Below are positions 4,850-32,000 of a stretch of 32,000 nucleotides of DNA, piece by piece; the stretch's first letter is position 1; the number at the start of each line of letters is the position of its first letter. The stretch lies in the NCBI RefSeq assembly GCF_000425405.1, contig NZ_AUDJ01000029.1:14000-45999 (forward strand). The letters are read 5' to 3'. The position numbers were made by a program, and so were the translations under genes. A model generated the notes under the pieces. The model was not told where the DNA came from, did no database searches, and was given only the letters and a program-made list of their open reading frames with translations. The DNA is from Ferrimonas kyonanensis DSM 18153. GTDB lineage: Bacteria; Pseudomonadota; Gammaproteobacteria; Enterobacterales; Shewanellaceae.

Positions 4850-4862
4850 GCAGTGCCGTCAA

Positions 4863-4891
4863 CCCTTACGGGGATCTATCCCCGAAAGGGG
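4863..4891 (+). other. Cluster of overlapping, mutually exclusive G/C hairpins
   Basis: The three alternatives are ccc-ttac-ggg, gggga-tcta-tcccc and cccc-gaaa-gggg (GNRA loop). Confidence 0.55.
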
Positions 4892-4919: not shown

Positions 4920-5192
4920 ATGAACACAATCAACGGAATTTCCCAGGTTTTACCTCATTTCAACTCTGCACCTTCTGCGCTGGTAGCCGTTCGACTGAAG
5001 CGCCCAGCATTTCTGCAGGTAGCGTCATCGGTCGCAGGGGTTACTGCTACCTGGTACAGCTGCTTCGGCATCGAGAACTTTGCGCAGCATCGAGCTCGCA
5101 ACGGGTTTTATAAAATCGAGGCGGGACAGATTACCAAGATCAGTGAGCATGAATTTGAACAGGGCATCGCCTTGGTCGGATTTTCAGCGTGA
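4920..5192 (+). CDS. Hypothetical protein (90 aa)
   Basis: ATG 4920 follows aagaagga. The listed start at 4842 would place the hairpin cluster inside the coding sequence, so it is disfavoured. Confidence 0.55.
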   Translation: MNTINGISQVLPHFNSAPSALVAVRLKRPAFLQVASSVAGVTATWYSCFGIENFAQHRARNGFYKIEAGQITKISEHEFEQGIALVGFSA

Positions 5193-9051: not shown

Positions 9052-10443
9052 TTACAGGAAATCTTTCATTGATGGGATCTGCTTAGCTTCCTCCATCATC
9101 TCAGCGCAAGCTGCTTCGACAATCTCCTTACAAAGCTCGACGTGGGCCCTTTCCGCTTTAGTAAGCCCCATCTCCTCAACTTCCTTCAGAGCATATGGCA
9201 GAGCCTGAGTGATACGGTTTATCACATCCAGAGTTAGAAGCTGCATGCGTTCAAGACTGATACCCAGCGTGTTGGCAAAATCTGCCAGTGCAAAAGCGGT
9301 CATTGGGTCTTCAAAGTTGCCGGGGGTGCCAGCCTCGTACTCGCCAATAGACATGGCGTAGAAGCGAGGTGTGCTCTGATCCCTGCCCTGAGCGGACAAT
9401 GCCTCGGCATCTTGTCGTGCCTCTGCCTCACGATACAGTGCCTCGATGTTCACTAGGTCGTAGAAAGGGGTGAGCTGTAACCCTCTTCTACCCACAAAGA
9501 AGCTTATGTTCTTGCCATGAGCGTCGAAGTTGCGGTTTAAGACGTTGAAGACCACCCACTGAACCAGTTGGCGGTGATAAGTCAGTTGGTCATTGGTTTG
9601 GACTGCGGCCAGCTTCGGCAAGGAAACGCCATCCCTGTACATCCTGGCGTCTGGCCCGTCGCCGTTCTGTCGCTCGTACTTATATGCTGATGGAAGATTA
9701 GTGGCCTGGCAGCCATCAATAACGTGGCGCCTGGATACTCGATTTTCATCCAGCAAGTATCTGCGGTCAAAGCGATCGACAATCAGGGTGCGAACCCCAC
9801 CAAATGTAGTAATTCGGGTAGTGGCCACCTGATCAAGGGTGCGTCGGGCCAATGCCATTGTGAAGGCCTCATTGACCACAATATTTGGCACTCTTCCTGA
9901 TTCGAACTTGTAGATGGTGTTGGAGCAGAGCTCGCCCTCACCAAGCCCGAACTGGTCACCTATCTCCAGGATGTTGAGCTTATCCTGAACACCGGCCACC
10001 GACAGGCGGGTGCGGCCGTCCCAGTAAGTAATGAGCCCTGCATTCTGAAGGCGTTGCCCCATCTCCTCATCGGTGATGACCCGAAAAGAGGACGCCTCCT
10101 GCTGAAATCCGGGAGCCGTGAAAGAGAGAGCGCCGGCGGTCTCGGTGCCAATACGACCTACCAGCGCAAACACGTTGGCTCGGGCAATAGTGGTGTTTTC
10201 CAGTAGCTCATCCAGCCCCTTACCTTCCGGTATCAGGTTCTCCAGGAAGTTGCGGACGTTGCGAGGAGGGATGTCCTCGTTGAAGGGCAGGTGCGGTGAT
10301 ACCGGGTAACCATTTTCGAGCCAAGCAGGGTCATAAGTAAACTCAAACTCGCTAACACTGCCAACAGGCAGCGCAAGGATCCCAACTAGGTCTTTCTGAG
10401 CTAGTCGAACCTCAAGCAGCTGGCGGTCAGGTCCAGTCATCAT
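9052..10443 (-). CDS. hipA: Type II toxin HipA-family serine/threonine kinase
   Basis: The N-terminal HipA motif is LSVAGVQDKL. The catalytic-loop motif is FDAHGKNISF (D-x-H-x-K-N). The protein is 463 aa, and its 5' end overlaps hipB by 17 nt. Confidence 0.9.
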   Translation of the reverse strand: MMTGPDRQLLEVRLAQKDLVGILALPVGSVSEFEFTYDPAWLENGYPVSPHLPFNEDIPPRNVRNFLENLIPEGKGLDELLENTTIARANVFALVGRIGTETAGALSFTAPGFQQEASSFRVITDEEMGQRLQNAGLITYWDGRTRLSVAGVQDKLNILEIGDQFGLGEGELCSNTIYKFESGRVPNIVVNEAFTMALARRTLDQVATTRITTFGGVRTLIVDRFDRRYLLDENRVSRRHVIDGCQATNLPSAYKYERQNGDGPDARMYRDGVSLPKLAAVQTNDQLTYHRQLVQWVVFNVLNRNFDAHGKNISFFVGRRGLQLTPFYDLVNIEALYREAEARQDAEALSAQGRDQSTPRFYAMSIGEYEAGTPGNFEDPMTAFALADFANTLGISLERMQLLTLDVINRITQALPYALKEVEEMGLTKAERAHVELCKEIVEAACAEMMEEAKQIPSMKDFL

Positions 10444-10744
10444 CTACCTCCGGGTGAACATGAAAGGGTGACAAGGAACTTGGCTCATCGGTCCTTATCT
10501 GGAATGACAGGCCCAGGTACTCCATAACCTTGAGGACGTTGTTAAGGTTGACGCCGATATCGCCTTTCTCGATCTTCACCAGGGTACTCTTTGACATGCC
10601 AAGAGTATCCGCGACATCCGCCTGGCGCAGGTTAAGCGTGGTGCGCTTGGAGGTAATCGCTTTTGCCAGCTGCAGTGGCGTGAATGGGAGCCGCAGATCG
10701 GGCATGGCCACTGGTTGGACAGATTTCCCTTTTCTCATGTTCAT
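10427..10744 (-). CDS. hipB: HipB-type XRE-family HTH antitoxin
   Basis: FTPLQLAKAITSKRTTLNLRQADVADTLGMSKSTLVKIEKG aligns with the E. coli HipB HTH. The acidic tail ends in DDDWT, and E. coli HipB also has a near-terminal Trp. The start is ambiguous: ATG 10744, 10738 or 10705, none with a good SD. Confidence 0.85.
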   Translation of the reverse strand: MNMRKGKSVQPVAMPDLRLPFTPLQLAKAITSKRTTLNLRQADVADTLGMSKSTLVKIEKGDIGVNLNNVLKVMEYLGLSFQIRTDEPSSLSPFHVHPEVDDDWT

Positions 10745-10924: not shown

Positions 10925-11693
10925 ACCTTCTTGATGTAGATGTTGTAGCGGATTCCTAGGGACTGATTTCGGCTTTGGCGCAAGCCTGTTGAGCTGTATC
11001 GCCACAACCGCTACAAGCAACGGTGTTATGGACAGGATTTTTGTACTGATGGATGTGCTACTGAAGTCACAGACCTATAGCTGTATTGGCAAGCGAGCCA
11101 AGACCGTTGAAATCAAGTATCGATGCCTCCGCGTAGACCGGTAGCCAGTCTTGTCATTGATGCCACTGGGTTATGACGAGGGAGAATGGAAGATGTGTAA
11201 GCATGGCAAGGAGAAGCGGCATGTCTGGCGCATGCTTCACCTTGCTGTTGATGACCAAACTCACGAAATGAGTGCTGCGGAAGTGAGCCTTGAAAACGTG
11301 GTCGACAACGAGGCACTCCTAACACTGTTGAGCCCTCTAACGGCCAACTATGCGTCAGGCATCAACCGATGATGAATATGACAGCAAGGCGTGCCATAAA
11401 CTGACGAAACGGAGTGGCAAAAAGCCTTCCATCCCGCCACTTAAGATTGTCGGTTACTGGGCGGATGGCCACCCAAGAATTGAGGAGCAATGAATTGTAG
11501 CAGTGGAAACGGGACAATGACTACAGCGCCTAGTCGGAGAAGCGTTGGCTGGAGTCAAAGCGATGAAAAAAGTCATAGAAATGGGTATGCCTATTCGACT
11601 GCGAACTGCCCAGATAACGATTTCCCTTGAGGCAATTGCGTCTCAAGCCTGGGTTTGATCGAGAAGCTACCTAGCAACATTATCAACTTAACC
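10925..11693 (+). mobile_element. Decayed IS5-family (IS903-group-like) insertion sequence remnant: a 5'-truncated transposase pseudogene
   Basis: Translations in shifting frames match the IS903-type transposase as I recall it. Examples are RIFVLMDVLLKSQTYSCIGKRAKTV, LVIDATGL (frameshift) YDEGEWKMCKHGKEKRHVWRMLHLAVDDQTHE, then a stop and a further frameshift, then KKVIEMGMPIRLRTA. The possible right end ATTATCAACTTAACC at about 11679-11693 resembles the IS903 terminal repeat. About 55 N-terminal codons and the left inverted repeat are missing. Confidence 0.75.
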
Positions 11694-11915
11694 TATTACA
11701 AGACCAATTTGTTGTGGCGTTAAGGGCTTTAAAGAAAGCGTTTAATGGTTGTTTCGCCTGCCCAGAATCGCTCCTGTTGTCAATTTAATCGCGAGGACAT
11801 TTATAGTCATCTATCGCATTTTTTTCGTCAAATTTGACATGAAATCTCTTTTTTGTTGTTGTCTTCTTATGCTAAGTTTGGGGTCTTGTTATAAATTCGT
11901 TGGAGTTTATCTGTT

Positions 11916-13340
11916 ATGCGGTTAAATAGTTTTGTTGTTATATTGCTTTTGATGCTCTTTGCATTTCCATCGTTTTCTGCTCTTAAGCCACCACCGCCAC
12001 CTAAAAAGGAACCAAGTCCATATCACTGGGTTAATTGTGTTGATTTGGAGCCAGAGTTCTCTCCTTTAAAGGCAGAAAAATTTGATGTTCCCGCAAACTC
12101 AGAGTATACACGATGCTTTAGAATGACCGGACACAACGACTCTGTTGTTTTAATTACTCAACGCTTCTATTTGAATGATGTGGATAATATACAGGTTTTT
12201 GTTGCTAACGATAAAAACTCTCCATATGAAGCATACAGAAAAATAAACTTCAACAACGTTAATTCCGAAGTTATGAATGCTTCTAAAATAGCTGGAGGAG
12301 ATTCTGATGATGAGATTAGAGTTGTTGTGAAGTTCTCACCTCATTCCGCAGAGCGAGAGCTTGTCATATCATATGGGATGTCCACTGAAGGTACAGGGTT
12401 GTTAACTTTAGGAGTTGCTTCTAACGGAGGGGAACAAACTCAAGGTGATGAGTATAAAGGGCCGAGTACTTACCATATGGACTTTTCAAACCAGGATGGC
12501 ATACAATCAATAAACAGTGAGTTAGAACGATATGATATTTCTAGATACAATAGAAATAGTGAACAATTCGAGTGTTCTCCAGGAGAGGTTCCGCCGGAAG
12601 GAATTAGTGATAACGAGCCGTTGAACTCGGCATTGTTACCAGTGGAGGCGCACAATCTTAGTTTATATGTTGAAGATGATCTGGCTAGAAAGGTAATAGG
12701 AGAAGTGGTTGGATCTACCGAGGACCGCGCATTGAGAATGGCCGCTGCAACTACCGCATACATAAAGTCTAAGTCATACAATAAAAAGGAGCATAGATCA
12801 TTTTACCTTGGAGCCGCGGAAAAGGTGGCGGGTCATTTGTCTGTAAATTCAATGCTTGACTCTCTTTCTGGAGATGTTGATATAAATGCATATAATAATG
12901 GCGTAAGTTATGGATCCCGTTTCTTGAATGACCCCATACGATATGAGTACATCGATTCTTGCAGTAAGGAAAAAATCCATGATACAGGTGTTTGCATATC
13001 ACGTGAATTTAAATTCAGATTCACTGGCATGACTGCTAATCGATGGTATTATAGAAAGTTTCCATATTATTTTGGTGAGAGAGTTAACCTGCATGTTTCA
13101 GCTAATCTCTATAGTTTTCCTGATAGAATCAAAGCGGATTCACTAGGAGGAAGTGAAAGAAATATTACGGAGCTATATTATAGCCCAGGTTACATGAAAG
13201 GAATAGTTGCACACCTATTTTCAGTTTCCGACCATAGTGATAATAAACACGGACCAATACAGTTTTGGGCTATACCTATGAAGGGGGTTGGGGTTTCTGC
13301 CGCGGAAATATCTGTTAAGTGCACGCCGATAGAATGGTGA
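11916..13340 (+). CDS. Secreted protein of unknown function (474 aa), AT-rich
   Basis: The signal peptide is MRLNSFVVILLLMLFAFPSFSA, followed by a PPPPPKK stretch. The N-terminal roughly 130 aa look weakly like a PPC/pre-peptidase-type beta-sandwich. The gene is much more AT-rich than its flanks. Confidence 0.75.
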   Translation: MRLNSFVVILLLMLFAFPSFSALKPPPPPKKEPSPYHWVNCVDLEPEFSPLKAEKFDVPANSEYTRCFRMTGHNDSVVLITQRFYLNDVDNIQVFVANDKNSPYEAYRKINFNNVNSEVMNASKIAGGDSDDEIRVVVKFSPHSAERELVISYGMSTEGTGLLTLGVASNGGEQTQGDEYKGPSTYHMDFSNQDGIQSINSELERYDISRYNRNSEQFECSPGEVPPEGISDNEPLNSALLPVEAHNLSLYVEDDLARKVIGEVVGSTEDRALRMAAATTAYIKSKSYNKKEHRSFYLGAAEKVAGHLSVNSMLDSLSGDVDINAYNNGVSYGSRFLNDPIRYEYIDSCSKEKIHDTGVCISREFKFRFTGMTANRWYYRKFPYYFGERVNLHVSANLYSFPDRIKADSLGGSERNITELYYSPGYMKGIVAHLFSVSDHSDNKHGPIQFWAIPMKGVGVSAAEISVKCTPIEW

Positions 13341-13907
13341 TTAAAATATTTACCATTTGAATTTAAGTGTATCTGATTACGTTTTTTAACTTATTAATTC
13401 TTCTATTTAAGAGGGTTAGTTGCATTAAGCATATTTATGGTTCTTCACAAATTGGCGGGAGCAGGATACAAAAACGGCTGGAAACGTTATAGTTTCATTG
13501 TACAGCCAACCAGCCGTTTTTGATGTCGAAGCTTACCTTACCAATCCCCTTCTAGGACGGCTTTTAATTGTCCATACCGATGTTCACCAGCATAATTTTA
13601 CCATTTACTTGTCTTCCCACGACCATAGCAGGTGTCGCTTGCGCAACAGGTTTCTGTAATTCAAATGGCTAACAAGGATAAAAGAGCAAGGGGAGAAGCC
13701 AAAAAAACTAAAATGCGTAAGCGAAAGGAATTCGTTAATAGCTTAAGTGGAAAGCTTGAGCCCGTGCTCGATAATCCTCGATAGGGAGTTTATTCAGTAT
13801 TCTGGCTATGGCAGGGAATAGGTAAGCTGTGATTCATTTTTCGACCTGCCATCGGAGGCGTTTGTCACATAAGCGAGGATTTGTAGATGTAGTCCGTGAG
13901 TTAGCTG

Positions 13908-14248
13908 TTAAGGATTTTTAGAGATTATATTTCTTCTTTTTTTGTCAGTGACAAAGCCCTCTAGAACTGAGTACATATTAGGACATGTCTCGGAAATCAC
14001 CTTCAGTCCCTCAGAGCACTTAGGATTGCCCATCATGGCTGTGCCAACACCACAAGGGAGAATCGTATACTCTATGAAATTTCGATCTATCTTTCCTCTT
14101 GACCCATTAATACACTCTTCTTTGTAGTCATGTTTATTGAGTTCAATAGTCAGAATAGCTTCCTTGATGTGATTAATATTTACATCGGTTTCTTTTGCGC
14201 AGCCAGATATGACTATAGCGGAAAAGAGACCAAGGTTATAGTTTTCAT
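13908..14248 (-). pseudogene. Small lipoprotein gene disrupted by a 1-nt frameshift in the A4 run right after the ATG
   Basis: ATG at 14248 gives MKTITLVSFPL-stop. Shifting one base gives (MK)NYNLGLFSAIVISGCAKETDVN... and the frame stays open to the stop at 13908. That is a textbook lipoprotein signal with the lipobox ISGC. An A5 run instead of A4 would restore MKNYNLGLFSAIVISGC. Confidence 0.6.
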
Positions 14249-14438
14249 TATTATTTTTATTCTTTATGAAGTTACGCGTATTTTATCCGTTGGCAAAACC
14301 AAAGATAAACTTTGTATATGGCTAAGTAAAATTTTCGAATCTATCAATAAGTCAACATCTAATGCTTATTCATAAAAATCAATAATTAGAATATTTAAAT
14401 TGATTTTAATGTTGGTTGTTAAACTGACATCATTAATT

Positions 14439-15458
14439 TTAAATATGTAGCTTTCTTAAAGCATCGCGCATCTTTTGCTCATCGCGCTTATCATATCGCT
14501 GGGTTGTGCGAAGATCAGAATGTCCCAACAAACGCTGCACAATCAAAATGTCGACGCCGGCATTGAGTAAATTAGTGGCAAAAGTTCGTCGCAAATCGTG
14601 AGGAGAGAACTTCTGTGTTCCAGCAATTGCTTGCAAGTGCTCAAGCGCGTTACGCACTCCAGAGACACCCAGAGGAAGCGATTTTGGGTGTACCTGATTA
14701 TTCCTGTTGGTCCGATAAAACAGCGGCCCAGGCTGATCCCCGCGTAGTGCAAGGTACTTATGCAACGCCGCTAGGGCCCGGGGGCTAAGCTCTAACACTC
14801 GTTCTTTGTTACCCTTTCCTAGGATCCGCATGGTGCGCTCGTACTTATTGAAGCTGGCCATGGACAGGCCTACGGATTCCTCCCTGCGCAGCCCCAGATC
14901 GGTCATTAGCAGCACCAGTGCGGCGTCGCGGGCTGCTCGGAATGGGGGAAATCTCGCTGCTTGCTCCACAAGTAACTCTATTTCTTGGGGTGTGAGTTCA
15001 CGGCCAGCAGGCGCACGAGTGCCTTTTACTGGCTTCACTTCTTTAATGAGCATGTAGGTATGAGCATCGATAAGTTGCAGTCTAAAGCAATGAGAAAGCA
15101 CCCCTTTAATAGCCGCCAGGTAAAGATTGCTGGTGTTTGGTGCTAAGCTTTGAAGCATGTTTGATTCTTCGACACTTTCTTTGGACTGTGTCATAGAGCT
15201 CAGGGTAAATAAATGGTTTTTGAACTTATTAATGGTCAGGTAGGTTAATTTATGCCATGGAAATGTGAAAGGATCATTCCAGTCGAAGCGTCGGGCAACG
15301 TTACTTAGGACATATTCCATGCGAGATTTAGAATTGGCAGAAGGCAAGTCATCCAAGTAGGCTGTGACAGCCACACGGGTTAATTCATTGGTGTGATCGA
15401 CACCGTTTAAAATAATTTCTGAGTTGGGTTGTGCTGCTAGTACCAATTCGTTGCTCAT
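14439..15458 (-). CDS. Tyrosine recombinase / phage-type integrase
   Basis: The full catalytic set is present: GLRREE (Arg), GKGNKER (Lys), HDLRRTFA (His-x-x-Arg), LLGHSDLRTTQRY (His and Tyr). The SD is aggaac. Confidence 0.9.
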   Translation of the reverse strand: MSNELVLAAQPNSEIILNGVDHTNELTRVAVTAYLDDLPSANSKSRMEYVLSNVARRFDWNDPFTFPWHKLTYLTINKFKNHLFTLSSMTQSKESVEESNMLQSLAPNTSNLYLAAIKGVLSHCFRLQLIDAHTYMLIKEVKPVKGTRAPAGRELTPQEIELLVEQAARFPPFRAARDAALVLLMTDLGLRREESVGLSMASFNKYERTMRILGKGNKERVLELSPRALAALHKYLALRGDQPGPLFYRTNRNNQVHPKSLPLGVSGVRNALEHLQAIAGTQKFSPHDLRRTFATNLLNAGVDILIVQRLLGHSDLRTTQRYDKRDEQKMRDALRKLHI

Positions 15459-15874
15459 TAGTTCCTAAGTCCATCTTGGTGCCGATCCAGGCGATCCCGG
15501 TTAATGATCGAAGAGTGTATAAATATAGTCTACTGCCTACTCCTGGTTGATTACAACAATAAAGACGCATTTACTGCTCTAATGTTTGGAGGGGGAGGGA
15601 CCTAAAAATTGGTACTCCTGTGTGAAATCTGGAACAGGGTAGGGCGCAAACCTCTAAAAGATTCGCGTAGCGCAACGTTGTTTTGACTGTTTTTGCTGGG
15701 TGGCCACCGCTGTAACCGTTGGTATGACTGGGTTTTGAGGGTGATTTAGTGCCGAAATCAACCCAAACGAACGACGCGGTATCTGCCGCATTTTTAACCG
15801 GCCTGGTACGTCCGGTCCCGGCGAGATGAAAAAGCTCCCTAATGGGGGTGGCTCGGCGAGGCGGCACTCCTTCC

Positions 15875-16201
15875 TCAGCGGCAACACGAGCCGGCGTGGT
15901 TCTTTATCTCAACCAATACGGTGCCATCTTCAGGGATAGGCATGCTCCAGCAGGTAACGCGCAAGGGCTCCAGGAAGTCCTTAACGTCCACTTGCACATG
16001 CACATCAGGTAGCTCAGAGGTTGGGTGATCCAGGTCGTCCGCATCCACCAAAGTCGCCTCTCTCGATGTCAGGCTGTTGGCCGCATGCAACACCTCGATC
16101 AGCCAGCGCACATCTGTGACTGGTGGAAGGTCCGGGGGCAGCTCAAGCACCTGAAGGCTGTTCTTCCAGAACGGACCAGTTATCACTAAGTGATCTCGCA
16201 T
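15875..16201 (-). CDS. Hypothetical protein (108 aa from ATG 16201; the ORF stays open up to GTG 16237)
   Basis: ggaga lies 5 nt upstream of ATG 16201. The gene is GC-rich and co-oriented with the next gene. Confidence 0.5.
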   Translation of the reverse strand: MRDHLVITGPFWKNSLQVLELPPDLPPVTDVRWLIEVLHAANSLTSREATLVDADDLDHPTSELPDVHVQVDVKDFLEPLRVTCWSMPIPEDGTVLVEIKNHAGSCCR

Positions 16202-16277
16202 GGGCGTCTCCATCGATGAGTCGGTGAAGCTGACCACCAGGTAGTGACCAGCACTTAGTCGAGCCTGCTGCTCCAGT

Positions 16278-16694
16278 TTATGCGGTCCTCTTTCCCAGGA
16301 GCCGCTCTACATAGTTGGCGGGGAACCCATAGGTGGCGTCGGGGTCGCCCACCTTCTTCGCTAGATAGGGGCGCTTTCGTGCTCGGCGATTGAAGCCGGC
16401 AAGCACAAAACGTTCACCCCCGGATTCAAAGGGAACGCTCAGGTCGAGGCCGTTCAAGGGGTGGGACGGGATTGCGGTCAATGCTTTCAGGGCGGTCATT
16501 TCCGGTGTGACTGCGGTACCAGATGCATTCAGCAAGCACAGTTCGACGGGCATCCGGGCGTCGGTTCTGGAGTATCGGATTCTGCCGAGCTGCAGGCTGA
16601 TCCCCAGCTTCTGCGCCAGTGTGTCAAGCTGGGGCTGAAGTTCGGCACGTAGCTGTTCCAGGAGTTCGGTGGTGACTTGGGTCGGTAGGGTCAT
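16278..16694 (-). CDS. Hypothetical protein (138 aa)
   Basis: A strong SD, aaggagag, lies upstream of ATG 16694. Confidence 0.65.
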   Translation of the reverse strand: MTLPTQVTTELLEQLRAELQPQLDTLAQKLGISLQLGRIRYSRTDARMPVELCLLNASGTAVTPEMTALKALTAIPSHPLNGLDLSVPFESGGERFVLAGFNRRARKRPYLAKKVGDPDATYGFPANYVERLLGKRTA

Positions 16695-16802
16695 GATGGT
16701 GCTCTCCTTGCTTTAGATTCAGACAGAGCATCTCACTTGGTGGTGATCGCGCTACTGCGACGGCTATGCGTATGGCCTATTGCTGCCTTACTCAGTCAAT
16801 AA

Positions 16803-16817
16803 TTATGACAACGCCCA
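16803..16817 (-). promoter_or_regulatory. Ter-like site, copy 1 (TGGGCGTTGTCATAA on the minus strand)
   Basis: It is 14/15 identical to the inverted copy at 16948-16962. It contains the GTTGT core and the upstream G that correspond to the E. coli Ter core and G6. Confidence 0.45.
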
Positions 16818-16947
16818 GCTTTCAAGATCGCCTCATGGCACTCCGAATCACACCATGATGACCACTGACAGGCTCCCTCTGCCACAAAAACCGCCTTCCA
16901 GCACCACTGAGGTTCGCTACGGAGTGCAATTAGGGATTATTCCCTAT

Positions 16948-16962
16948 TGGACGTTGTCATAA
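16948..16962 (+). promoter_or_regulatory. Ter-like site, copy 2 (TGGACGTTGTCATAA)
   Basis: This is the inverted partner of copy 1, with a 130-bp spacer, and sits 76 bp upstream of the tus-like start. It matches 12/16 positions of the E. coli consensus AGNATGTTGTAAYKAA as I recall it. Confidence 0.45.
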
Positions 16963-17037
16963 AACTTGTGACAGCGGCAGCGAATTTACTATGATATTGA
17001 TATGATGAACGACCCCTGAGCACCTGTTACGTTAGCC

Positions 17038-17925
17038 ATGGACATTCGTAATCAACTGAAACAGACCTACCGCGACATCGAGGTCAGCCAGCGCCGGCTG
17101 GACTCGGCACTCGATGCCTGCCTGTATGTGCAGGCCAAAGCTTACGAGTTGCCGGCAATCGCCGAGGACGACAGCTTCAAGGCCATCAGCACGCTCGAGC
17201 CGAGTCTAATTGAAGGGTTCACTGCCGAGGCCAAGATCCGTCGTGCCTGGGCCCGCTATTACGTGGACAGCGGCAGCTCCACCCTCTGCTCGGTGAAGAT
17301 GCCTGGGGTCGTTCAATACCAGGCGGCGCCAGGTGAGCTGCAGCGGATCTTTGAGCTGGTAGATGACCTAAATAAGCGCAAGCGGAGGTTTGAAGAGATC
17401 TCCCAGCTGATCGACGATGAGTACGAGCGCCATGCCGCCATCCACGAGCTGTTCCCGCGGCTGCACAACAGGCAGCTGTGCCGGCAGCTGCATTGCGTCG
17501 GCGGCGATTTGGTACCAGACAGCATCGGCTTTAGCTTCAGCAATAAAGTGGTGGCGCACCAGGTGAGCGTTGACGCTACCCTCACCCGCCTGGAACAGAC
17601 GCTCGGCCATTCACTGCTGGCCGCCGCTGACGCCCAACTTGCACGCGCTCGAAGAGACAAGATCCTAGATCTGCAGCAGCAGTACGGCGATGATCTGGTC
17701 CTGGTACACCGCCGCTTCGGTAAGGTGCAGCCGATCTATAACCTGCGCTACGATCGCCAAGTTAGGCAGAAACCGGCCTCGATGCCGCTGCTCCTGCTGA
17801 CCACCACAACAGGCCCGGTGAAACTCAACAACCTGGCCAGCTACAGCATGCGAGTACCGGAGCTTACCGGTGGGGAGTTCCTGGATCCGACCAGTCCTAT
17901 ATATTGGCGAGCCGGCACAGATTAG
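17038..17925 (+). CDS. tus: DNA replication terminus site-binding protein (Tus) homologue
   Basis: Block-wise similarity runs along the whole length against E. coli Tus as I recall it. The blocks are VKMPGVVQYQ vs VRLPGVLCYQ, IHELFPRL vs VHRHLPGL, GFSFSNKVV vs RFGWANKHI, LTRLEQTL vs LAQLEKSL, and FGKVQPIYNLRY vs VKVQPIARVWY. The size is similar: 295 vs 309 aa. Confidence 0.7.
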   Translation: MDIRNQLKQTYRDIEVSQRRLDSALDACLYVQAKAYELPAIAEDDSFKAISTLEPSLIEGFTAEAKIRRAWARYYVDSGSSTLCSVKMPGVVQYQAAPGELQRIFELVDDLNKRKRRFEEISQLIDDEYERHAAIHELFPRLHNRQLCRQLHCVGGDLVPDSIGFSFSNKVVAHQVSVDATLTRLEQTLGHSLLAAADAQLARARRDKILDLQQQYGDDLVLVHRRFGKVQPIYNLRYDRQVRQKPASMPLLLLTTTTGPVKLNNLASYSMRVPELTGGEFLDPTSPIYWRAGTD

Positions 17926-18449
17926 CGCGCATGATCACTGCTGGTACCGGTGAACCTTCACGCCTTCACTCTAAACGACCATTGCCCCGCCAGCGCATCA
18001 TTCAAGCCAACCCACGTACAGATCCACTTCACCGCGGTGGAGAACCTGGTGATGGAAACTCACATCCTTCCCTTCAATAACCTATTGCCCGGGGCCGATG
18101 GCACGGACCCGCGTGAAGCTGCACTTCTCAAGGATTGAACTGCGTGCTGCACCTGCCATGCTGGAGCAGATGCCTCGTAGTCGCAAGGTCGCGCCCACGC
18201 GGCTCCTACGAACAACGCTTACTGAGGCGCATTCATAGCTGTCTTGATCCAGGTGCAGTTGCCACATTACTTATTACCTCTTGTGAGTAGAACATTAGGG
18301 TTCTACTCCACCGTACGGCGCTTTTGGAAAATGGGATAGTTTGCCGGGTTTTTAGAGAAACTGCGCTTCGGGGCTCCGGTGCAACTTGACTCCAAGGCCT
18401 AATGTGCGATGTTGACAAAGAACCACATTCAAGGAGATAGGAGATTAAA

Positions 18450-19556: not shown

Positions 19557-20817
19557 CTATCGCACCGAAGGGATTTCTTCCCACCGGGTCAAGCTGCGCG
19601 GTGAATGCCGAGCACCATTGTCAGCAGAACGGTCACCCAGCTTTTGGGCTGCTATCTGCAGGCTATGGGTGCCGTACTTTGACTGAATGGCCTTGATGCC
19701 TGCCATCAGCTTGTCTGCCCCCTTACGCACCGGTGCATCAAACAAGCCCAGTTGACACTCATCGCGGTTACAAGGGTCAAGAGCGCCCACGGTGACCCGC
19801 CCAATAGGCACTCCGGGCCGGTAAGCCAACTCCACCGCCTTAGCCGCGGCGGTAGCCAGCTCCCTAATGTCGTCCGTTGGGTAAGCGAGCCGTAGCCGTT
19901 GACTGTGCCCCCAACGCACAGATCGGTCGAATGGGCTAGAGGAAAGCTGCAGTAGGTACTCACTGGCCACCAGGTCATGATCCCTGAGCTTTTTCGCCAC
20001 GGTAGACACCCTCTCCATCACTCCCGGCATCAAGGTCACCAGGGCAACCGGCTTCTCCTTCAATGAGCGAGAGCTCATGATTTGCTGGCGATTACTGACG
20101 TCCATGTCCGCCACCCGCATGCACTCCTTACCGTTCAACTCCAGATGCGTGCGTTCCAGGGTGACGCCGTGTAATCGCCTCAGGCTGAGCCGATCGTACT
20201 GAGCCAGGTCCCACGCAGTCCGAATACCTGCTGCCTCCAGCCTAGGCGCCAACCTCCGTCCCACACCCCAGACGTCGCCGACGCTGATGGTGGCCAGCAA
20301 CAGCCTGTCTGGGCGCTCCAGGATACATAGACCACGGTAGTCAGGGTGAGACTTGGCCAGCTCACTGGCCGCTTTGGCCAAGGTGATTGTGGGGGCGGCA
20401 CTGAATTTACAGCCCAGCCGCAGCTCGGTCCAGATCTGCTTCCGCACCGAGCGCCCCTCACCGATGAGGTCACCACGACTTGGCAGCTTGATCAGGCTTT
20501 CGTCCACAGAATACGGGGTAGCACAGGCGCCGTATCTCTGATTCAGAAGGTCATGAAAACGGTGGCTCATCTCGCTAAAGAGCTCGAAGGTTGAGCTTCT
20601 GCGGATCAGAGCATCGCGTTGGTGCTTGGGCAGCGCATCGGTTTGCTGCCAGAGCGGAACGAACTTTTTTAAGGCCCATGGCCTTCGCCTCAGGCGAAAT
20701 GGCCACCACAACGCCGTCATTGGAGCTGGTGACAATGACAGGTCTACCCCGCGTCGCAGGCTCCAGGCTTTGGATCATCGACGCATAGGCACTGGTCAGG
20801 TCGATTAGAGCCCACAT
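19557..20817 (-). pseudogene. umuC: umuC (Y-family DNA polymerase V catalytic subunit) interrupted by a frameshift in an A6 homopolymer
   Basis: The N-terminal MWALIDLTSAYASMIQ...PVIVTSSNDGVVVAISPEAKAMGLKK (frame of ORF 20575-20853) matches UmuC MFALCDVNAFYAS...PVVVLSNNDGCVIARNAEAKALGVK. The remainder, FVPLWQQ...SVDESLIKL...VWGVGRR, is in the frame of ORF 19557-20735. The switch occurs at TTTTTT 20665-20670 on the plus strand. The total span of 1261 nt equals 420 codons plus 1. Confidence 0.85.
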
Positions 20818-21194
20818 GAGGACGGGGACAGTTCGGGGATGGGGTGCCAGCATCGAATGGATCGGATGACGACCCCCTCAATGGCAAAGGCGGCTGGGCC
20901 ACATAGAGCCAGCCGCTCGGTTGCAGTGGCCAACTGGCCCGCTTCCACATCGAGAAAGCCTATTCGAAACTCGCCATCCACAGCACAAACGACCAGGTCA
21001 CCCGTTTTGGCTTCACGGCCGCGCTCCACGATCAGCAGATCGCCTTGATGGATGCCAACGGTTGAGAATTCATTGGTATCACAGCGCATGAACAGGCTAG
21101 CCGCCGGCTTATCAATCAGTAGGGAGTCAAGGCTGAGGACACCAACCTGCATGTCTTCGGCCTGGCTTGGCCAGCCCTGGATTGGATAACTCAT
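20805..21194 (-). CDS. umuD: UmuD-like protein lacking the N-terminal arm and the Ser/Lys catalytic dyad (UmuD'-like)
   Basis: IQGWPSQAED vs UmuD VQCGFPSPAAD, GDLLIV is identical, and AVDGEF is identical. Its 3' end overlaps the umuC start by 13 nt. I chose the start at ATG 21194 because the LexA box lies inside the longer listed ORF. Confidence 0.75.
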   Translation of the reverse strand: MSYPIQGWPSQAEDMQVGVLSLDSLLIDKPAASLFMRCDTNEFSTVGIHQGDLLIVERGREAKTGDLVVCAVDGEFRIGFLDVEAGQLATATERLALCGPAAFAIEGVVIRSIRCWHPIPELSPSSCGL

Positions 21195-21209
21195 GATCGA
21201 TCGACACCA

Positions 21210-21225
21210 CTGTTTATTTATACAG
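21210..21225 (-). promoter_or_regulatory. LexA (SOS) box CTGTTTATTTATACAG
   Basis: A perfect CTGT-N8-ACAG with an AT-rich spacer, 16 bp upstream of the umuD-like start. On the coding strand it embeds a TATAAA -10-like hexamer. Confidence 0.85.
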
Positions 21226-21333
21226 TGGCAGTGTAGCGCCGTCCCCAGCCTTTGTCGATTACCCAAGTACGTTATAGCCAGCTTTCATCGTGCATGGACC
21301 TGCACAGATGCTCATTCGATCCGTTACTGTGCC

Positions 21334-29365: not shown

Positions 29366-32000
29366 TCACTGGTTTGCGGGTTTCGAAGGATCCAGCGGCG
29401 TCAGATCCGGCCCATGTCGACCGGGAGAGCCTGAGCCTCCACCGACCGGCGCCCCTGCCTCCTGGCTGTGCTTGACCGGGTCGATATGGCCAGCCATTTC
29501 ACTGGCGGCCCCCATTAAGCGCTCACCATCTGCAGTACGCCCTGCCGCGACCATAGCTTCCCCCATGGCCATTAAGTGCCCGGGAACCTCTGCATATCGC
29601 TCTAGAGCAGTATGGTTGTTGTGCTCCACAGCTGTATCGTACGCATCTGTAAACCGAGACTGGAAGTCCTCCAGGTTCTCGAATTTCAGCGCATCAGGCT
29701 GGTGGGCGCCCCAGTACGTCGGAAGGTGCGGAGAGAACGCCCCCACATCCGAGGCGTCATGACCCAGGATGGCCATTCCTGCGCTAACCGCTAACCCGGC
29801 CGAAGTCTCTCCGGCATTTGCATAGCCAGCACTCAACTGAGCCTGAGCCACCGGGGTTAACGGGACGCTTTGGCCAGAGGAAGCAGACAGCATTCGAAGA
29901 TCATCCAGCGCCGCCATCGTCTTGGGGCTGTTGCCGTTAATCGTCTCTGTCGCCTGGCGCCACTTGTCACCGTTTTCCACCGCTCTGTAGAAGTCCTCGC
30001 CGTAAAGCTGCTGGTAGCGCTCGGCAACATCATCCATCAGTGCCACTGCGCCGGCGCTGGCCGGATTGCTCATCAGCAGCTCAGGGCCAGGCACATCGCC
30101 TCTAAGCATCTCACTCATCAAACCGGCGTACTCCAGGCTCGACTGCCCCTCAGCGACCAGTGAAGCATGGGCATAAAGCGCTTTTTGGCTGTCAGACCAC
30201 TGGCTTGATGGGCCGGAGAGATGCTCATTGAGCAGGTTCATTGCCCCCTGCCATCGCTCTTTATCCGCGCCCGCCAGGGCCTGATTGGTGTGGTTTTGGA
30301 GCTGATCAAAGTTTGGTGCCACATCGGGGTTGCCGTGGGTTAGGGCCCCGGCGATGGCCGCCACAGTCAGTTGCTGCTCGGGCAAGGATAGCGGCTGGTC
30401 GCTGTTAAAATGCGACAACGCAGCTGTGGGATAGGCTGCATTGGTCGCCGCCTCCACGTTCGCGGCTTGCACGGCCAGGGGTACCGTCTCATTCCCCTTG
30501 TAGCCATTGGCGCCATAGTGATCGTCACTCAGGGAGTAGGCGATCAGGTTGTCGTTGGCTGCCTCAACACGCTGCGCGGTTGCAAGGGACCGATCAGCAA
30601 AGCGCTGCTCGAGCTGAGCGCTAGCTTGCTCAAGCCGCGCTTTGCCACCTTCATGAGCTTGATACACCTGGTTTTCGCCATTGAGAGCAGCCTTCTCGCT
30701 CTGCAGCGCCAATGACGTGACCGCATCACGATCCCTATCAATTTTATCTGCACGCGCGGCCTGCTCTGTCTTGGCCTCGGTGGATACCTCGGAGGGCTTA
30801 TTGGCCTGCTGCTGGATCTCATCTGTGAGCTCGGCGGAGCGCACCAGGGCATGCCCAAGCTGCTCGATGCCGGTACGGTTCTTGGAGTTATCGCCAATAT
30901 CCTTGAGAGCTTCACCCATGGCCCTGACGCCAGCTGAGTAGTCACTGCCCTCCCCGCCTCTACCATCTGAACTCAACAGCTCAATGTTTCCTTTCTGAAT
31001 GTCCTGGTACATGTCACGTAGCGCGACACCCCATGCAGCCGACCCCTGCATCTCAGGCGTGAGCTGACCGGTGGTGTTCTCGAGGCCGAAGTTGAACGAC
31101 TGACGCAAGCGCTCTGCCTGTTGATATGCTGCCGAAGCCGGGGCACCATCGACGCCCAAGTTGGTCACATCTACTCGGTCCTGCAGCTTCTGCTGCTGTG
31201 CGGCCCAGGCCGCCTGAGCCTCCTCATGACGAGCATTTTCCTCTGGCGAGGCATCCGCCGATGGCGCCTGCAAAGGACTGGCATTGTGCTTCTCCAGAGC
31301 GGCGACAGCTTGCAGATGCTCATTGAGATTGCCGTGGTCATCCATCCGAAAGGCATCGGACACCAAGCCGTTTGCTTTCAAGGCATCCAGTACCTGCTCC
31401 CCCTTGATGCCAAAAAGGTTTTGCGCGAGTTCAACCGCAGTCATATTGCTGTTGATTGAGGCGTTCACCTCGGTCAGAGCCGCTTCTGTGGCCGCTTCCA
31501 GGTTGGATTTACTGGTGGTGTAATTTTGAAGTAGCGCCGCGCCATCGGTGCGAGCGTTGGTCCGGTTGGCGCTGAGCTGGTCGTTATGCACCTTGGAGTA
31601 GCGCTCCGCTTCCAGCAGATTGCTTTGATATTGCTCATTGTATTGCTGGGAAAACTGTTCGGCGGTGCTTGCGCTCACGCCGGCTTGCGTCAGAGCCTTA
31701 GTCGAGATGTCACCGCCACTCACCAACGCCGACAACGCCCCCCCAGCCTTCCCTGCCAATGCCTTAATACCTGACTTGCCATCGAAGCCCAACTTGGCCG
31801 CGAGCTCATCACGCTGCTCTTGAGTCATCTTATTCACGGTTTGCCCCAGGGCATTCAGAGACGCAGAATCCGATTTGGTGAACCCTTGGTCCAAGTAGTT
31901 ACCAACACTGGTTGTGTTGCCGGCGGACAGTGCCGCCCCCCTTACATGACTCCATTGCTCATTGACTGCGTGCTGTGTGCTGGACAGCTCTTGCGATGCC
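29366..32000 (-). CDS. Very large Ala/Gln/Ser-rich protein, with its 5' end outside the window (more than 877 aa visible). It may be a TraG-like or mating-apparatus-associated protein.
   Basis: The minus-strand frame has no stop between the listed TTG at 31894 and base 32000, so the CDS continues beyond the window. I saw no enzymatic motif. The functional guess rests only on size, composition and the exported-protein operon downstream. Confidence 0.75.
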   Translation of the reverse strand, partial: ASQELSSTQHAVNEQWSHVRGAALSAGNTTSVGNYLDQGFTKSDSASLNALGQTVNKMTQEQRDELAAKLGFDGKSGIKALAGKAGGALSALVSGGDISTKALTQAGVSASTAEQFSQQYNEQYQSNLLEAERYSKVHNDQLSANRTNARTDGAALLQNYTTSKSNLEAATEAALTEVNASINSNMTAVELAQNLFGIKGEQVLDALKANGLVSDAFRMDDHGNLNEHLQAVAALEKHNASPLQAPSADASPEENARHEEAQAAWAAQQQKLQDRVDVTNLGVDGAPASAAYQQAERLRQSFNFGLENTTGQLTPEMQGSAAWGVALRDMYQDIQKGNIELLSSDGRGGEGSDYSAGVRAMGEALKDIGDNSKNRTGIEQLGHALVRSAELTDEIQQQANKPSEVSTEAKTEQAARADKIDRDRDAVTSLALQSEKAALNGENQVYQAHEGGKARLEQASAQLEQRFADRSLATAQRVEAANDNLIAYSLSDDHYGANGYKGNETVPLAVQAANVEAATNAAYPTAALSHFNSDQPLSLPEQQLTVAAIAGALTHGNPDVAPNFDQLQNHTNQALAGADKERWQGAMNLLNEHLSGPSSQWSDSQKALYAHASLVAEGQSSLEYAGLMSEMLRGDVPGPELLMSNPASAGAVALMDDVAERYQQLYGEDFYRAVENGDKWRQATETINGNSPKTMAALDDLRMLSASSGQSVPLTPVAQAQLSAGYANAGETSAGLAVSAGMAILGHDASDVGAFSPHLPTYWGAHQPDALKFENLEDFQSRFTDAYDTAVEHNNHTALERYAEVPGHLMAMGEAMVAAGRTADGERLMGAASEMAGHIDPVKHSQEAGAPVGGGSGSPGRHGPDLTPLDPSKPANQ

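Follow-up and report, generated by a model that had tools for sequence, protein, structure and literature searches.

To our knowledge, Escherichia coli and Bacillus subtilis are the only bacteria whose replication fork traps have been characterized in detail. Paired inverted ter sites have also reportedly been described on plasmids R6K and R1/R100, in work by Horiuchi and Hidaka and by Hill, both from 1988, and by Krabbe from 1997. In the 'type I' two-site fork trap of E. coli and other Enterobacterales (Toft et al. 2021, PMC8707476), the Tus protein acts with asymmetric Ter sites of about 23 bp, one of which, TerB, lies upstream of tus, and two sites of opposite polarity form a trap at the GC-skew switch. 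The core of the E. coli Ter site comprises positions 6 and 8-18 (PMC8347550). The R6K terminus and the terRL/terRR sites of R1/R100 (PMC10331603) likewise consist of two nearby ter sites whose polarities are opposed; on these plasmids the sites set the terminus or make replication unidirectional, and they guard against over-replication. R6K and R1 carry the sites only and rely on the chromosomal Tus of their host.

Tus genes on plasmids and other mobile DNA are also on record. These include the 'mobile tus' of Galli et al. 2019 (PMC6549158) and both CDS191 of pAQU1 and the 'ter' genes of IncA/C and IncT plasmids (PMC4036041), and a further tus gene occurs on chromosome 2 of Pseudoalteromonas (PMC7858055). 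In the literature searched, the ter sites belonging to mobile Tus proteins were 'only implicated' or could not be located by means of the E. coli consensus (PMC6549158, PMC4036041, PMC7858055). The initial annotation of the DNA described here held that Tus is normally chromosomal, a view that the documented plasmid-borne and 'mobile' genes (PMC6549158, PMC4036041) do not sustain. A Tus on a mobile element is therefore not new, given IncA/C, pAQU1 and the 'mobile tus' of Galli 2019; what is new here is a set of candidate cognate paired sites.

The locus in question lies in a 32-kb window of the marine bacterium Ferrimonas kyonanensis, the window being the whole 32,000-nt stretch of DNA that was analyzed, out of a 76-kb contig. 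Its Tus homolog belongs to the same family and has the same predicted fold as the Tus of E. coli and other Enterobacterales, and the locus shares with E. coli Tus-Ter G6 and GTTGT within a putative asymmetric site some 23 bp long, one site upstream of tus in the orientation of TerB, and two sites of opposite polarity that would form a trap at a GC-skew switch. Unlike those systems, the Ferrimonas protein is only 21-25% identical to enterobacterial Tus, the core of its putative site differs from E. coli Ter at positions 15, 17 and 18, and the residues of the lock pocket are only partly kept. Moreover, the partner site is 130 bp away, as against 18-560 kb in chromosomal traps, and the putative module sits on an element of the conjugative-plasmid type in an order, the Alteromonadales (Ferrimonadaceae), without a 'resident' tus. 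In contrast to R6K and R1, the element has a divergent tus of its own, which would make it independent of the host.

Tus Homolog and Its Genomic Setting

The 295-aa CDS at 17038-17925 on the plus strand is a real but very divergent Tus. It matches the family HMM of Pfam PF05472 (Ter/Tus) with an E-value of 3.4e-32 and scores 112.1 bits where the cut-off is 22, with residues 6-270 aligned to positions 1-271 of the 296 in the profile, and a sequence search of the PDB returned E. coli Tus chains at an E-value of 5e-8. Scores against the NCBIfam equivalogs NF002810 and TIGR02648 were far under the cut-offs (87.2 versus 323 bits and 65.1 versus 178.3 bits, respectively). Judged by its sequence, the protein is a member of the Tus family and not an equivalog of enterobacterial Tus. 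A word-indexed protein search found no match for it besides itself.

An AlphaFold (AF2) model of the protein reached a pLDDT of 91.3 and a pTM of 0.85. When this model was compared with the PDB by Foldseek, the only significant matches were Tus chains 4xr2, 4xr1, 4xr0 and 1ecr (E-values of 1e-21 to 1e-23, TM 0.75-0.78). The predicted fold has the two α/β domains and the interdomain β-strands of the Tus type; in the Tus fold, these strands bind DNA. The Tus call of the initial annotation was borne out by the family HMM and the PDB match, and the fold check that it had proposed gave a predicted structure superposing on Tus only.

Near-invariant residues of the family that the Ferrimonas protein keeps are H136 (H144 of E. 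coli), R226 (R232) and K170 (K175). The roles of the cytosine-pocket and lock residues of E. coli Tus (I79, F140, H144 and G149) were reportedly worked out by Mulcair et al. in 2006. When the corresponding pocket was inspected, as the initial annotation had suggested, H144 was found to be retained as H136, but F140 is replaced by H132, I79 by V76 and G149 by R141. Two further residues of E. coli Tus are also changed, K89 to L83 and R198 to L193. Since the pocket and lock residues are only partly kept, it is uncertain from the alignment whether the Ferrimonas protein would form the C6 'mousetrap' lock.

The setting of the gene is that of a mobile element. Its neighbors encode a DUF3150 protein, a CobT-like VWA protein, a Toprim protein, HipBA, a tyrosine recombinase and UmuDC-like proteins, and BLASTP placed the window in collinearity with the MOBH conjugative plasmid pVPS91 at 38, 62, 71 and 78 kb. 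The backbone of this plasmid type is marked by DUF3150, VWA/CobT-like, Toprim, tyrosine recombinase and tus genes, of which VWA, Toprim, tyrosine recombinase and tus were the ones seen in line with pVPS91, and the VWA protein matched 1122 plasmid records, 911 of them conjugative. The placing of tus among mobile-element genes, already noted in the initial annotation, is upheld by these neighbors and by the pVPS91 collinearity, and the element appears to carry a conjugative plasmid backbone of the MOBH pAQU/IncA/C-like type. Like the known mobile tus genes, the Ferrimonas gene belongs to the backbone of large marine conjugative plasmids of the MOBH type; its product, however, is only 23-28% identical to known plasmid Tus proteins. 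Within the 32-kb window, no relaxase or T4SS gene was recognized with Pfam or NCBIfam, and the right-hand genes were likewise recognized by neither. The 842-aa ORF at 29366-31894 had no plasmid homolog, and megablast of the 14-21 kb region against plasmids gave no match. An HTH gene occurs 2.2 kb downstream.

Paired Ter-Like Sites Upstream of tus

Two Ter-like 15-mers lie in inverted orientation upstream of tus. The left site is on the minus strand and has a 23-bp footprint, in E. coli Ter numbering, of 16799-16821; the plus strand at 16803-16817 is TTATGACAACGCCCA, which reads TGGGCGTTGTCATAA on the minus strand, with G6 at 16816 and GTTGT at 16812-16808. The right, tus-proximal site is on the plus strand, with a footprint of 16944-16966, and contains the 15-mer TGGACGTTGTCATAA at 16948-16962, with G6 at 16949 and GTTGT at 16953-16957. 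Between the 15-mers is a spacer of 130 bp (16818-16947), the predicted termination zone, whose sequence differs among relatives. The two arms are complementary at 14 of 15 positions, as the initial annotation had read them, and the 32-kb window holds no third good copy of the 15-mer. A chance origin had been put at roughly 1% in that annotation, and simulation made it rarer still: inverted arms 15 nt or longer with no more than one mismatch turned up once in 1000 simulations of the 343-bp intergenic region under a first-order Markov model. A divergent 138-aa ORF adjoins this intergenic region, and the region of the pair is partly shared by a further, weaker inverted repeat (16689-16701 / 16851-16863).

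Alignment with E. coli Ter gives the sites a numbering and a predicted polarity. G6 and GTTGT at positions 10-14 were present in seven of the seven sites examined, which bears out the Ter-like core and upstream G described earlier; the sites are asymmetric, and their conservation extends over about 21 bp. Of the 12 core positions of E. coli Ter, 7-8 match in the window, with G6, position 8 (R), GTTGT and A16 kept. Core position 9 differs, and so do positions 15, 17 and 18 (CATA versus AACT). By this comparison, the Ferrimonas site is akin to the E. coli Ter consensus without conforming to it.

As had been claimed, the two G6 ends in the window point toward each other, and they do so in both of the close relatives described below; the tus-proximal site is oriented relative to tus like the TerB-type site in a Klebsiella record. 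The pair has the geometry of a fork trap, with two sites of opposite polarity and with permissive faces that, by Ter alignment and TerB-like orientation, are predicted to point outward. This is the viable arrangement, because non-permissive faces turned outward would, with efficient blocking, leave the spacer unreplicable.

A consensus scan also placed a σ70-like promoter candidate for tus at 16968-16995 on the plus strand, with a -35 of GTGACA, a 16-nt spacer and a -10 of TATGAT. Since this candidate begins 2 bp past the 23-bp footprint of the right site, autorepression of tus is plausible.

Conservation of the Pair in Close Relatives

The evidence that we take as decisive for reading the repeats as Tus sites comes from a comparison with two relatives. 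A scan of 1.8 billion representative proteins yielded only two clusters with more than 30% identity to the Tus homolog, and these two close relatives, at 35-36% identity, belong to a conjugative element of Neiella (L001) and to a metagenomic Rep3/ParA plasmid (L002). The motif GGRYGTTGTCATA is common to the window and to both relatives, and in each case it forms an inverted pair directly upstream of tus. The Neiella pair is TAATTATGACAACACCC/GGGTGTTGTCATAATTA with a gap of 173 nt, and the L002 pair is TTCTATGACAACACCCT/AGGGTGTTGTCATAGAA with a gap of 143 nt, ending 1 nt before the tus ATG. In each locus, GGRYGTTGTCATA occurs exactly twice, with no copy elsewhere. Outside the sites, the upstream regions of the three loci, spacers included, are unalignable, and tus is the sole neighboring gene that pair-bearing loci have in common. 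At the sequence level, the pair is conserved across lineages and is exclusively associated with tus. The initial annotation had allowed that the pair might prove to be the operator of a different regulator; its recurrence before tus in both relatives, amid non-homologous flanks and with only tus in common, speaks against this.

A blind motif scan of metagenome contigs pointed in the same direction. It returned three contigs, two of which (L007 and L008) carry further L002-type tus genes, while the third is an unrelated repeat array. The pair scans of public collections took in spacings of 130-160 nt, a range that the 173-nt spacing of the Neiella type exceeds.

GC Skew Around the Pair

The cumulative G-C skew of the 32-kb window follows a tent-shaped curve, which rises from 0 to a maximum of +488 at 16775 and falls back to +32. 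This apex is 28 bp from the left site, and the skew is +0.058 to the left of the pair and -0.052 to its right. A maximum of this kind is what converging forks would be expected to leave. The tus gene, though on the plus strand, itself has a negative skew, so the switch is not purely a coding-strand effect. The apex does coincide with a large-scale switch in gene orientation, and it is therefore not independent proof of fork convergence.

Skew apexes or plateaus are also found near the pair in L001, L002 and pVPS91. Plasmid pPHDP70 yielded the motif only in its tus-proximal copy, and its skew is monotonic. Near the local skew minimum of pVPS91 there was only mobI, and no rep gene or iterons; iterons were also absent between tus and the Rep3 gene of L002.

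Predicted Mechanism and Alternatives

Taken as a whole, the locus is rather probably a self-contained replication-termination module on a large MOBH element of the conjugative-plasmid type, in which the Tus-bound pair would trap both forks in the spacer. We infer from the conserved pair that the divergent Tus would bind as a monomer to each asymmetric site of about 21-23 bp upstream of its own gene. By analogy with E. coli, whose site polarity it would share, the left site is predicted to block leftward-moving forks and the right site rightward-moving ones. A fork arriving from either side would then pass the first Tus-site complex at its permissive face and be arrested at the second. Both forks would end in the 130-bp spacer, which would fix the terminus of the replicon there. 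If the origin is suitably placed, the pair could also make replication largely unidirectional and keep the replicon from over-replicating, in the manner of plasmid R1. With its tus-proximal site abutting the predicted promoter, tus is probably autoregulated as well, much like TerB in E. coli.

Another means of accounting for the sites is as operators only, through which Tus would repress the tus promoter and possibly also the divergent 138-aa ORF, with fork arrest having no physiological role on the element. The right site does abut the predicted -35 of tus, the proximal site of L002 reaches almost to the ATG, E. coli TerB, located in the promoter region of tus, has an autoregulatory function (PMC10331603), and in both the window and the Neiella locus the pair stands between divergent genes. 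One site would suffice for autoregulation, yet the inverted partner, 130-173 bp away, has been kept in three of three lineages, and L002 and L008 have a third, weaker site outside the left site and in the same orientation, resembling the backup Ter sites of E. coli. In addition, the divergent gene is not conserved among the relatives, the genes upstream in L002 are co-oriented, and the skew apex falls at the pair. In the one system studied, a Tus-family protein is also, once bound, an intrinsically polar barrier. A purely regulatory function is thus unlikely, although it has a real claim to consideration. Nor need any regulatory role be uniform, since the distance from the proximal site to the ATG varies among the three loci (75, 42 and 1 nt, the last in L002).

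The locus could conceivably also be a decaying remnant, in which a 3′-truncated or frameshifted tus is non-functional and the sites persist only through recent descent. Residues 277-295 are predicted to be disordered, the C-terminal RLHLY-type strand of most homologs is absent, and past about 17890 the other two reading frames are weakly similar to the C-termini of relatives (QISAH, RLH), making a frameshift at the 3′ end possible. The equivalents of K89 and R198 have also been lost. Decay is nonetheless improbable considering that, this end aside, the ORF runs unbroken through 270 aligned residues and its fold is predicted with confidence, that the arms are still nearly identical, and that the skew apex is sharp. 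The C-termini of both close relatives are atypical too, and the subfamily may simply differ there.

Finally, it is very improbable that the repeat represents the operator of another regulator, MITE-like ends, or an ssDNA/RNA hairpin that signals single-strand initiation or transfer; in ssDNA, pairing of the arms is possible (MFE -26.4 kcal/mol, z -3.85), and both the nearby HTH gene and the overlapping weaker repeat would suit such readings, but these were rejected because the spacers are unrelated and leave no MITE body, the arms are constant and do not covary across lineages with 35% protein identity, and only tus travels with the pair, while the one arm difference in the window breaks the pairing, an Rfam search gave no relevant family, and the motif is Ter-like and oriented like TerB.

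Other Tus Subfamilies and Implications

Inverted pairs of their own, 80-195 bp apart and directly upstream of tus, were also found on pVPS91, on a P. donghaensis plasmid and on the Pseudoalteromonas secondary chromosome. No clean pair was seen upstream of the more distant tus loci L003-L005, L010-L012 and L023, and an alignment of the upstream regions of three IncC-type tus genes contained nothing conserved. What the comparisons add to the record is a specific, conserved paired site for one tus subfamily and candidate pairs for three others.

These pairs suggest an evolutionary reading, which we put forward only tentatively. A tus gene preceded by a co-evolving, inverted Ter pair with 80-195 bp between the two sites may be an ancestral, portable fork trap, from which the wide traps of Enterobacterales would derive by separation of the sites after domestication. 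By the same tentative reading, the module would recur in the clade of Ferrimonas, Neiella and the Rep3 plasmids, in pVPS91/pAQU-type plasmids, in the MOBH plasmid of P. donghaensis and on the secondary chromosome of Pseudoalteromonas. Reviews have proposed that Tus-Ter was domesticated from plasmids, without a plasmid module holding both gene and sites to cite. A compact module of tus and two Ter sites, with a site (GGRYGTTGTCATA) that departs from the E. coli consensus, is a concrete candidate for such an ancestral unit.

Orthogonal Tus-Ter pairs of this kind would allow tests of how much the C6 lock contributes to polarity, and they could also be useful as site-specific fork barriers. For the plasmids themselves, the module would explain how the terminus is fixed, or how replication is made unidirectional, in large marine conjugative plasmids whose hosts lack Tus.

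Tus on a plasmid-type element

The initial annotation called the 295-aa product of the CDS at 17038-17925 (+) a Tus homologue, and searches bear this out. Pfam PF05472 matches residues 6-270 (E 3.4e-32; 112 bits, cut-off 22) and a PDB search returns E. coli Tus chains (E 5e-8), while two NCBIfam Tus equivalog models score far under their cut-offs (87 vs 323 bits; 65 vs 178 bits). An AlphaFold2 model built with 57 homologues (pLDDT 91.3, pTM 0.85; residues 277-295 disordered) superposes on Tus alone in the PDB: Foldseek recovered 4xr2, 4xr1, 4xr0 and 1ecr (E 1e-21 to 1e-23, TM 0.75-0.78), and the first match after these chains stood at E 0.24. The product is a genuine, if highly divergent, Tus. 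The cytosine pocket is only partly preserved, with H144 kept as H136 but F140, I79 and G149 replaced by H132, V76 and R141; the equivalents of E. coli K89 and R198 are also lost. The roles of these pocket and lock residues were reportedly worked out by Mulcair et al. 2006.

Galli et al. 2019 (PMC6549158) defined three clades with a "resident" tus, and Ferrimonas (Alteromonadales, Ferrimonadaceae) belongs to none of them. The neighbours of tus in the window encode DUF3150, CobT-like VWA, Toprim/DUF7146, HipBA, tyrosine recombinase, UmuD-like and UmuC-like proteins. Of the 1122 plasmid records that carry a homologue of the VWA protein, 911 are typed as conjugative. The gene order is collinear with that of pVPS91, a MOBH/MPF_F conjugative plasmid: VWA, Toprim, tyrosine recombinase and tus lie at 38, 62, 71 and 78 kb in pVPS91 and at 0.4, 2.3, 14.4 and 17.0 kb in the window. 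The context is a conjugative-plasmid-type backbone, on which tus is a known passenger. Indeed, the premise that a mobile Tus is unusual is outdated, since PLSDB holds 26 records with plasmid-annotated tus genes (Vibrio, Pseudoalteromonas, Photobacterium, Aeromonas, Klebsiella; all <30% identical to the window Tus), tus on pAQU1, IncA/C and IncT plasmids was already recorded (PMC4036041) and "mobile tus" has been described (PMC6549158). The protein and the presence of tus on plasmids are already known. No cognate ter site of any mobile Tus was found in the searchable literature and, as far as that literature extends, a self-contained unit of tus and two Ter sites with a divergent conserved site is undescribed.

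Several other features of the element were observed. GC content drops to 39-46% in a segment at 11000-15500, against 52-59% elsewhere. Within this segment lie a 474-aa ORF that matches no family and, on the minus strand at 14439-15458, the gene for the tyrosine recombinase, a protein 32.5% identical over 338 aa, its full length, to the pVPS91 backbone recombinase, likewise a few kb from tus. On chromosomes, dif is placed near the terminus; by analogy, the recombinase may provide multimer resolution close to a terminus. By far the best-conserved protein between this element and pVPS91 is encoded by a small ORF two genes upstream of tus (15875-16237, minus strand; 60% identical to the hypothetical protein at pVPS91 49859-50197). 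A toxin-antitoxin pair of HipA (463 aa, HipA_C and Couple_hipA) and a HipB-like HTH protein (105 aa) lies at 9052-10744 (-), and a UmuD-like (Peptidase_S24) and UmuC-like pair at 19557-21266 (-). The UmuC-like ORF may be truncated or mis-started at its N-terminus, because it aligns to the IMS catalytic-domain profile only from position 61/148 onwards and has TTG as its start codon.

Paired Ter-like sites upstream of tus

A repeat finder recovered the proposed sites, TTATGACAACGCCCA at 16803-16817 (left, minus strand) and TGGACGTTGTCATAA at 16948-16962 (right, plus strand; both in plus-strand reading), as the arms of a 15-nt inverted pair that are 93% complementary and lie 130 nt apart. As had been estimated, chance is an unlikely source: when the 343-bp intergenic region was simulated 1000 times with a first-order Markov model, only one run contained an inverted pair of 15 nt or longer with no more than one mismatch. 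In the window, the exact core pattern GNNNGTTGTCAT occurs only at these sites, and no third convincing copy of the 15-mer was found with up to three mismatches allowed. The region also contains a second inverted repeat (GGTCATGATGGTG at 16689-16701, CACCATGATGACC at 16851-16863; 12/13 complementary), whose left arm overlaps the start codon of the 138-aa divergent ORF and whose right arm falls within the Ter spacer. By a rough estimate, chance alone would give about 0.07 pairs of this kind in a stretch of that length. The pVPS91-type site has CATGATGGT as its core, and this second repeat contains the same sequence.

The likeness to Ter extends beyond the window. Seven sites were aligned on GTTGT (positions 10-14 of E. 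coli Ter): two from the window, two from a Neiella tus locus (L001) and three, including a weaker third copy, from a metagenomic locus (L002). Position 6 is G in 7/7, and conservation reaches about position 25, with GTTGTCATAATTATTG in the left window site and the right L001 site. Against the conserved E. coli core, positions 6 and 8-18 (PMC8347550), the window sites match at 7-8/12 positions and differ at 9, 15, 17 and 18. The proximal (right) site is oriented relative to tus like the TerB-type site of a Klebsiella record, AGTATGTTGTAACTAAGG, which lies on the tus strand 21 bp before the ATG.

The non-permissive face of E. coli Ter is the low-numbered, G6 side (PMC4499146). If that polarity holds, the right site is predicted to block rightward forks and the left site leftward forks, with the two G6 ends facing each other. 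Because every fork would meet a permissive face first, the predicted arrangement is the classical trap, 130 bp wide, that forks enter but do not leave. Independently, simple logic favours inward polarity, since with outward-facing blocks the spacer could not be replicated. In L002 the third site flanks the left site on its outer side and shares its orientation, much as backup Ter sites do in E. coli.

The pair travels with tus

Scanning all 1.84 billion cluster representatives with HMMER yielded 91 Tus-family matches, among which only P0002 (36%) and P0003 (35%) exceed 30% identity to the window Tus. The first, P0002, belongs to Neiella holothuriorum (Alteromonadales, Echinimonadaceae); TraG_N and DUF4165/Big_3 proteins are encoded at its locus, L001, as well. 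The P0003 cluster consists of metagenomic sequences, and L002, the longest of its contigs, has a Rep3_N initiator gene 1.35 kb 3′ of tus and a ParA-type gene, so that by gene content it is a plasmid. Immediately 5′ of tus, both loci carry a perfect 17-nt inverted pair with a core identical to the window's: TAATTATGACAACACCC (4854-4870) and GGGTGTTGTCATAATTA (5044-5060) in L001, 173 nt apart with the tus ATG at 5103, and TTCTATGACAACACCCT (9823-9839) and AGGGTGTTGTCATAGAA (9983-9999) in L002, 143 nt apart with the ATG at 10001. The motif GGRYGTTGTCATA occurs exactly twice per locus, against our estimated chance expectation of ~0.002 occurrences.

Outside the sites, the upstream regions of the window, L001 and L002 are not alignable. 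Near the pair, tus is the only gene common to the loci, and two other weak window matches to L001 are >9 kb distant. When 241 million metagenome records were searched blind for the pattern as a pair spaced 130-160 nt apart, three contigs came back, two of which (L007 and L008) have a P0003-type tus adjoining the pair. Judged from these loci, the pair travels with tus and nothing else, which argues strongly that Tus is its ligand; on the same ground, the refuting case raised in the initial annotation, an operator of a different regulator, becomes very improbable.

The third contig, L006 (Ga0114973_10035043, 3018 bp, freshwater), is an unrelated repeat array. At 1370-2600 it has ~50 copies of a 21-bp TTGGGAGTTGTCAGACA-like unit in blocks of alternating orientation; the unit contains TTGGGAGTTGTCA(G/T/A)A and has GGGNGTTGTCA in common with the Ter-like motif. 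The contig shows no tus ORF, and a 442-aa ORF beside the array has no Pfam match. Could this be an iteron or fork-barrier array?

GC skew

The leading strand is typically G-rich, so a cumulative G-C maximum marks a terminus. The window's curve is a tent, rising from ~0 to +488 at 16775, 28 bp from the left site, and falling to +32 at 32000 (skew +0.058 left of the pair, -0.052 right). This is what converging forks produce, but large-scale gene orientation converges at the apex too and confounds the signal. The minus-strand genes left of the apex (hipBA, recombinase) give only small dips, and plus-strand tus sits on the falling limb. In L001 the apex lies within ~2 kb of the pair, and in L002 a local plateau maximum spans it. 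In pVPS91, a complete plasmid, a long rise ends at 73-77 kb. Beyond the tus pair of this plasmid, at 77.5 kb, the curve turns down, and it has a local minimum at 97 kb; the pVPS91 origin was looked for but not identified.

Mechanism and alternatives

The reading we favour, and hold to be reasonably probable, is that Tus binds both sites and that the bound pair would form a polar 130-bp fork trap, setting the point at which a large plasmid-type replicon terminates in hosts that lack Tus. An additional role of the proximal site would be that of an autoregulatory operator, because it abuts the predicted tus -35 at 16968. Where the initiator gene lies beside tus, as in L002, one fork would be stopped almost at once, making replication effectively unidirectional; this is how R1 has been described, and Pseudoalteromonas chromosome 2 is proposed to behave likewise (PMC10331603).

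That same promoter-proximal position would suit a pair serving as operator only, a reading we regard as rather unlikely beside the inverted partner kept in all three lineages and the skew apex. More doubtful still is that the module is a decayed remnant. The C-terminal strand (RLHLY type in most homologues) is absent, the ORF stops ~10 residues short of its relatives, and past ~17890 the other two frames are faintly similar to relatives' C-termini, so the 3′ end may be truncated or may carry a frameshift, either genuine or introduced in assembly; the Tus fold is nonetheless kept, and the two arms still agree at 14/15 positions. Within 17880-17990, the +1 frame reads ...GEPAQISAHDHCWYR before a stop (compare Neiella ...TQIISAHFGIV) and the +2 frame ...EPSRLHSKR (compare RLHLY). 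A non-Tus site, hairpin or MITE is very improbable for a pair that moves with tus alone.

Candidate ter sites in other tus subfamilies

By sequence comparison, inverted pairs are also present upstream of tus in other subfamilies, where the site sequences differ. In pVPS91 (L013 2218-2446, record 77541-77761) the arms are TTTAGACCATCATGCAA and TTGCATGATGGTCTAAA, 189 nt apart, and in the P. donghaensis MOBH plasmid NZ_CP032092.1 (L022 1271-1467) they are ATCTATACCATCATACTA and TGGTATGATGGTATAGAA, 161 nt apart. Two Pseudoalteromonas secondary chromosomes have AAAGAACACATCTTACTTAA and TTAAGTAAGATGTGTTCCTA with a 194-nt gap and a third copy (NZ_CP077771.1, L014 2181-2414) and CAAAGAACACATCATACTTAA and TTAGGTAAGATGTGTTCTTTG with an 80-nt gap (NZ_CP133572.1, L021 1314-1435). 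The right arm is <70 bp from the tus ATG in all four. On the tus strand, the proximal sites of pVPS91 and P. donghaensis have the sequence G(C/T)ATGATGG, which resembles GTATGTTGT of E. coli Ter; their common ATGATGG core resembles Ter positions 8-14, and the pVPS91 pair sits where the long skew rise ends. No clean pair was found at the thresholds used in L003-L005, L010-L012 or L023, and pPHDP70 yielded the proximal motif copy alone, with no second copy; an IS91 transposase is annotated ~0.5 kb upstream of its tus.

The Pseudoalteromonas motif (TTAAGTAAGATGTGTTCCTA / TTAGGTAAGATGTGTTCTTTG type) is ~20 bp long and inverted, with copies 80-194 nt apart directly 5′ of the chromid tus. The E. coli consensus failed to locate the ter site of Pseudoalteromonas chromosome 2 (Xie et al. 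2021, PMC7858055), and a 2023 review describes that site as "only implicated" (PMC10331603). The ~20-bp copies are candidates for the chromosome 2 ter sites that published work has not identified (PMC7858055, PMC10331603).
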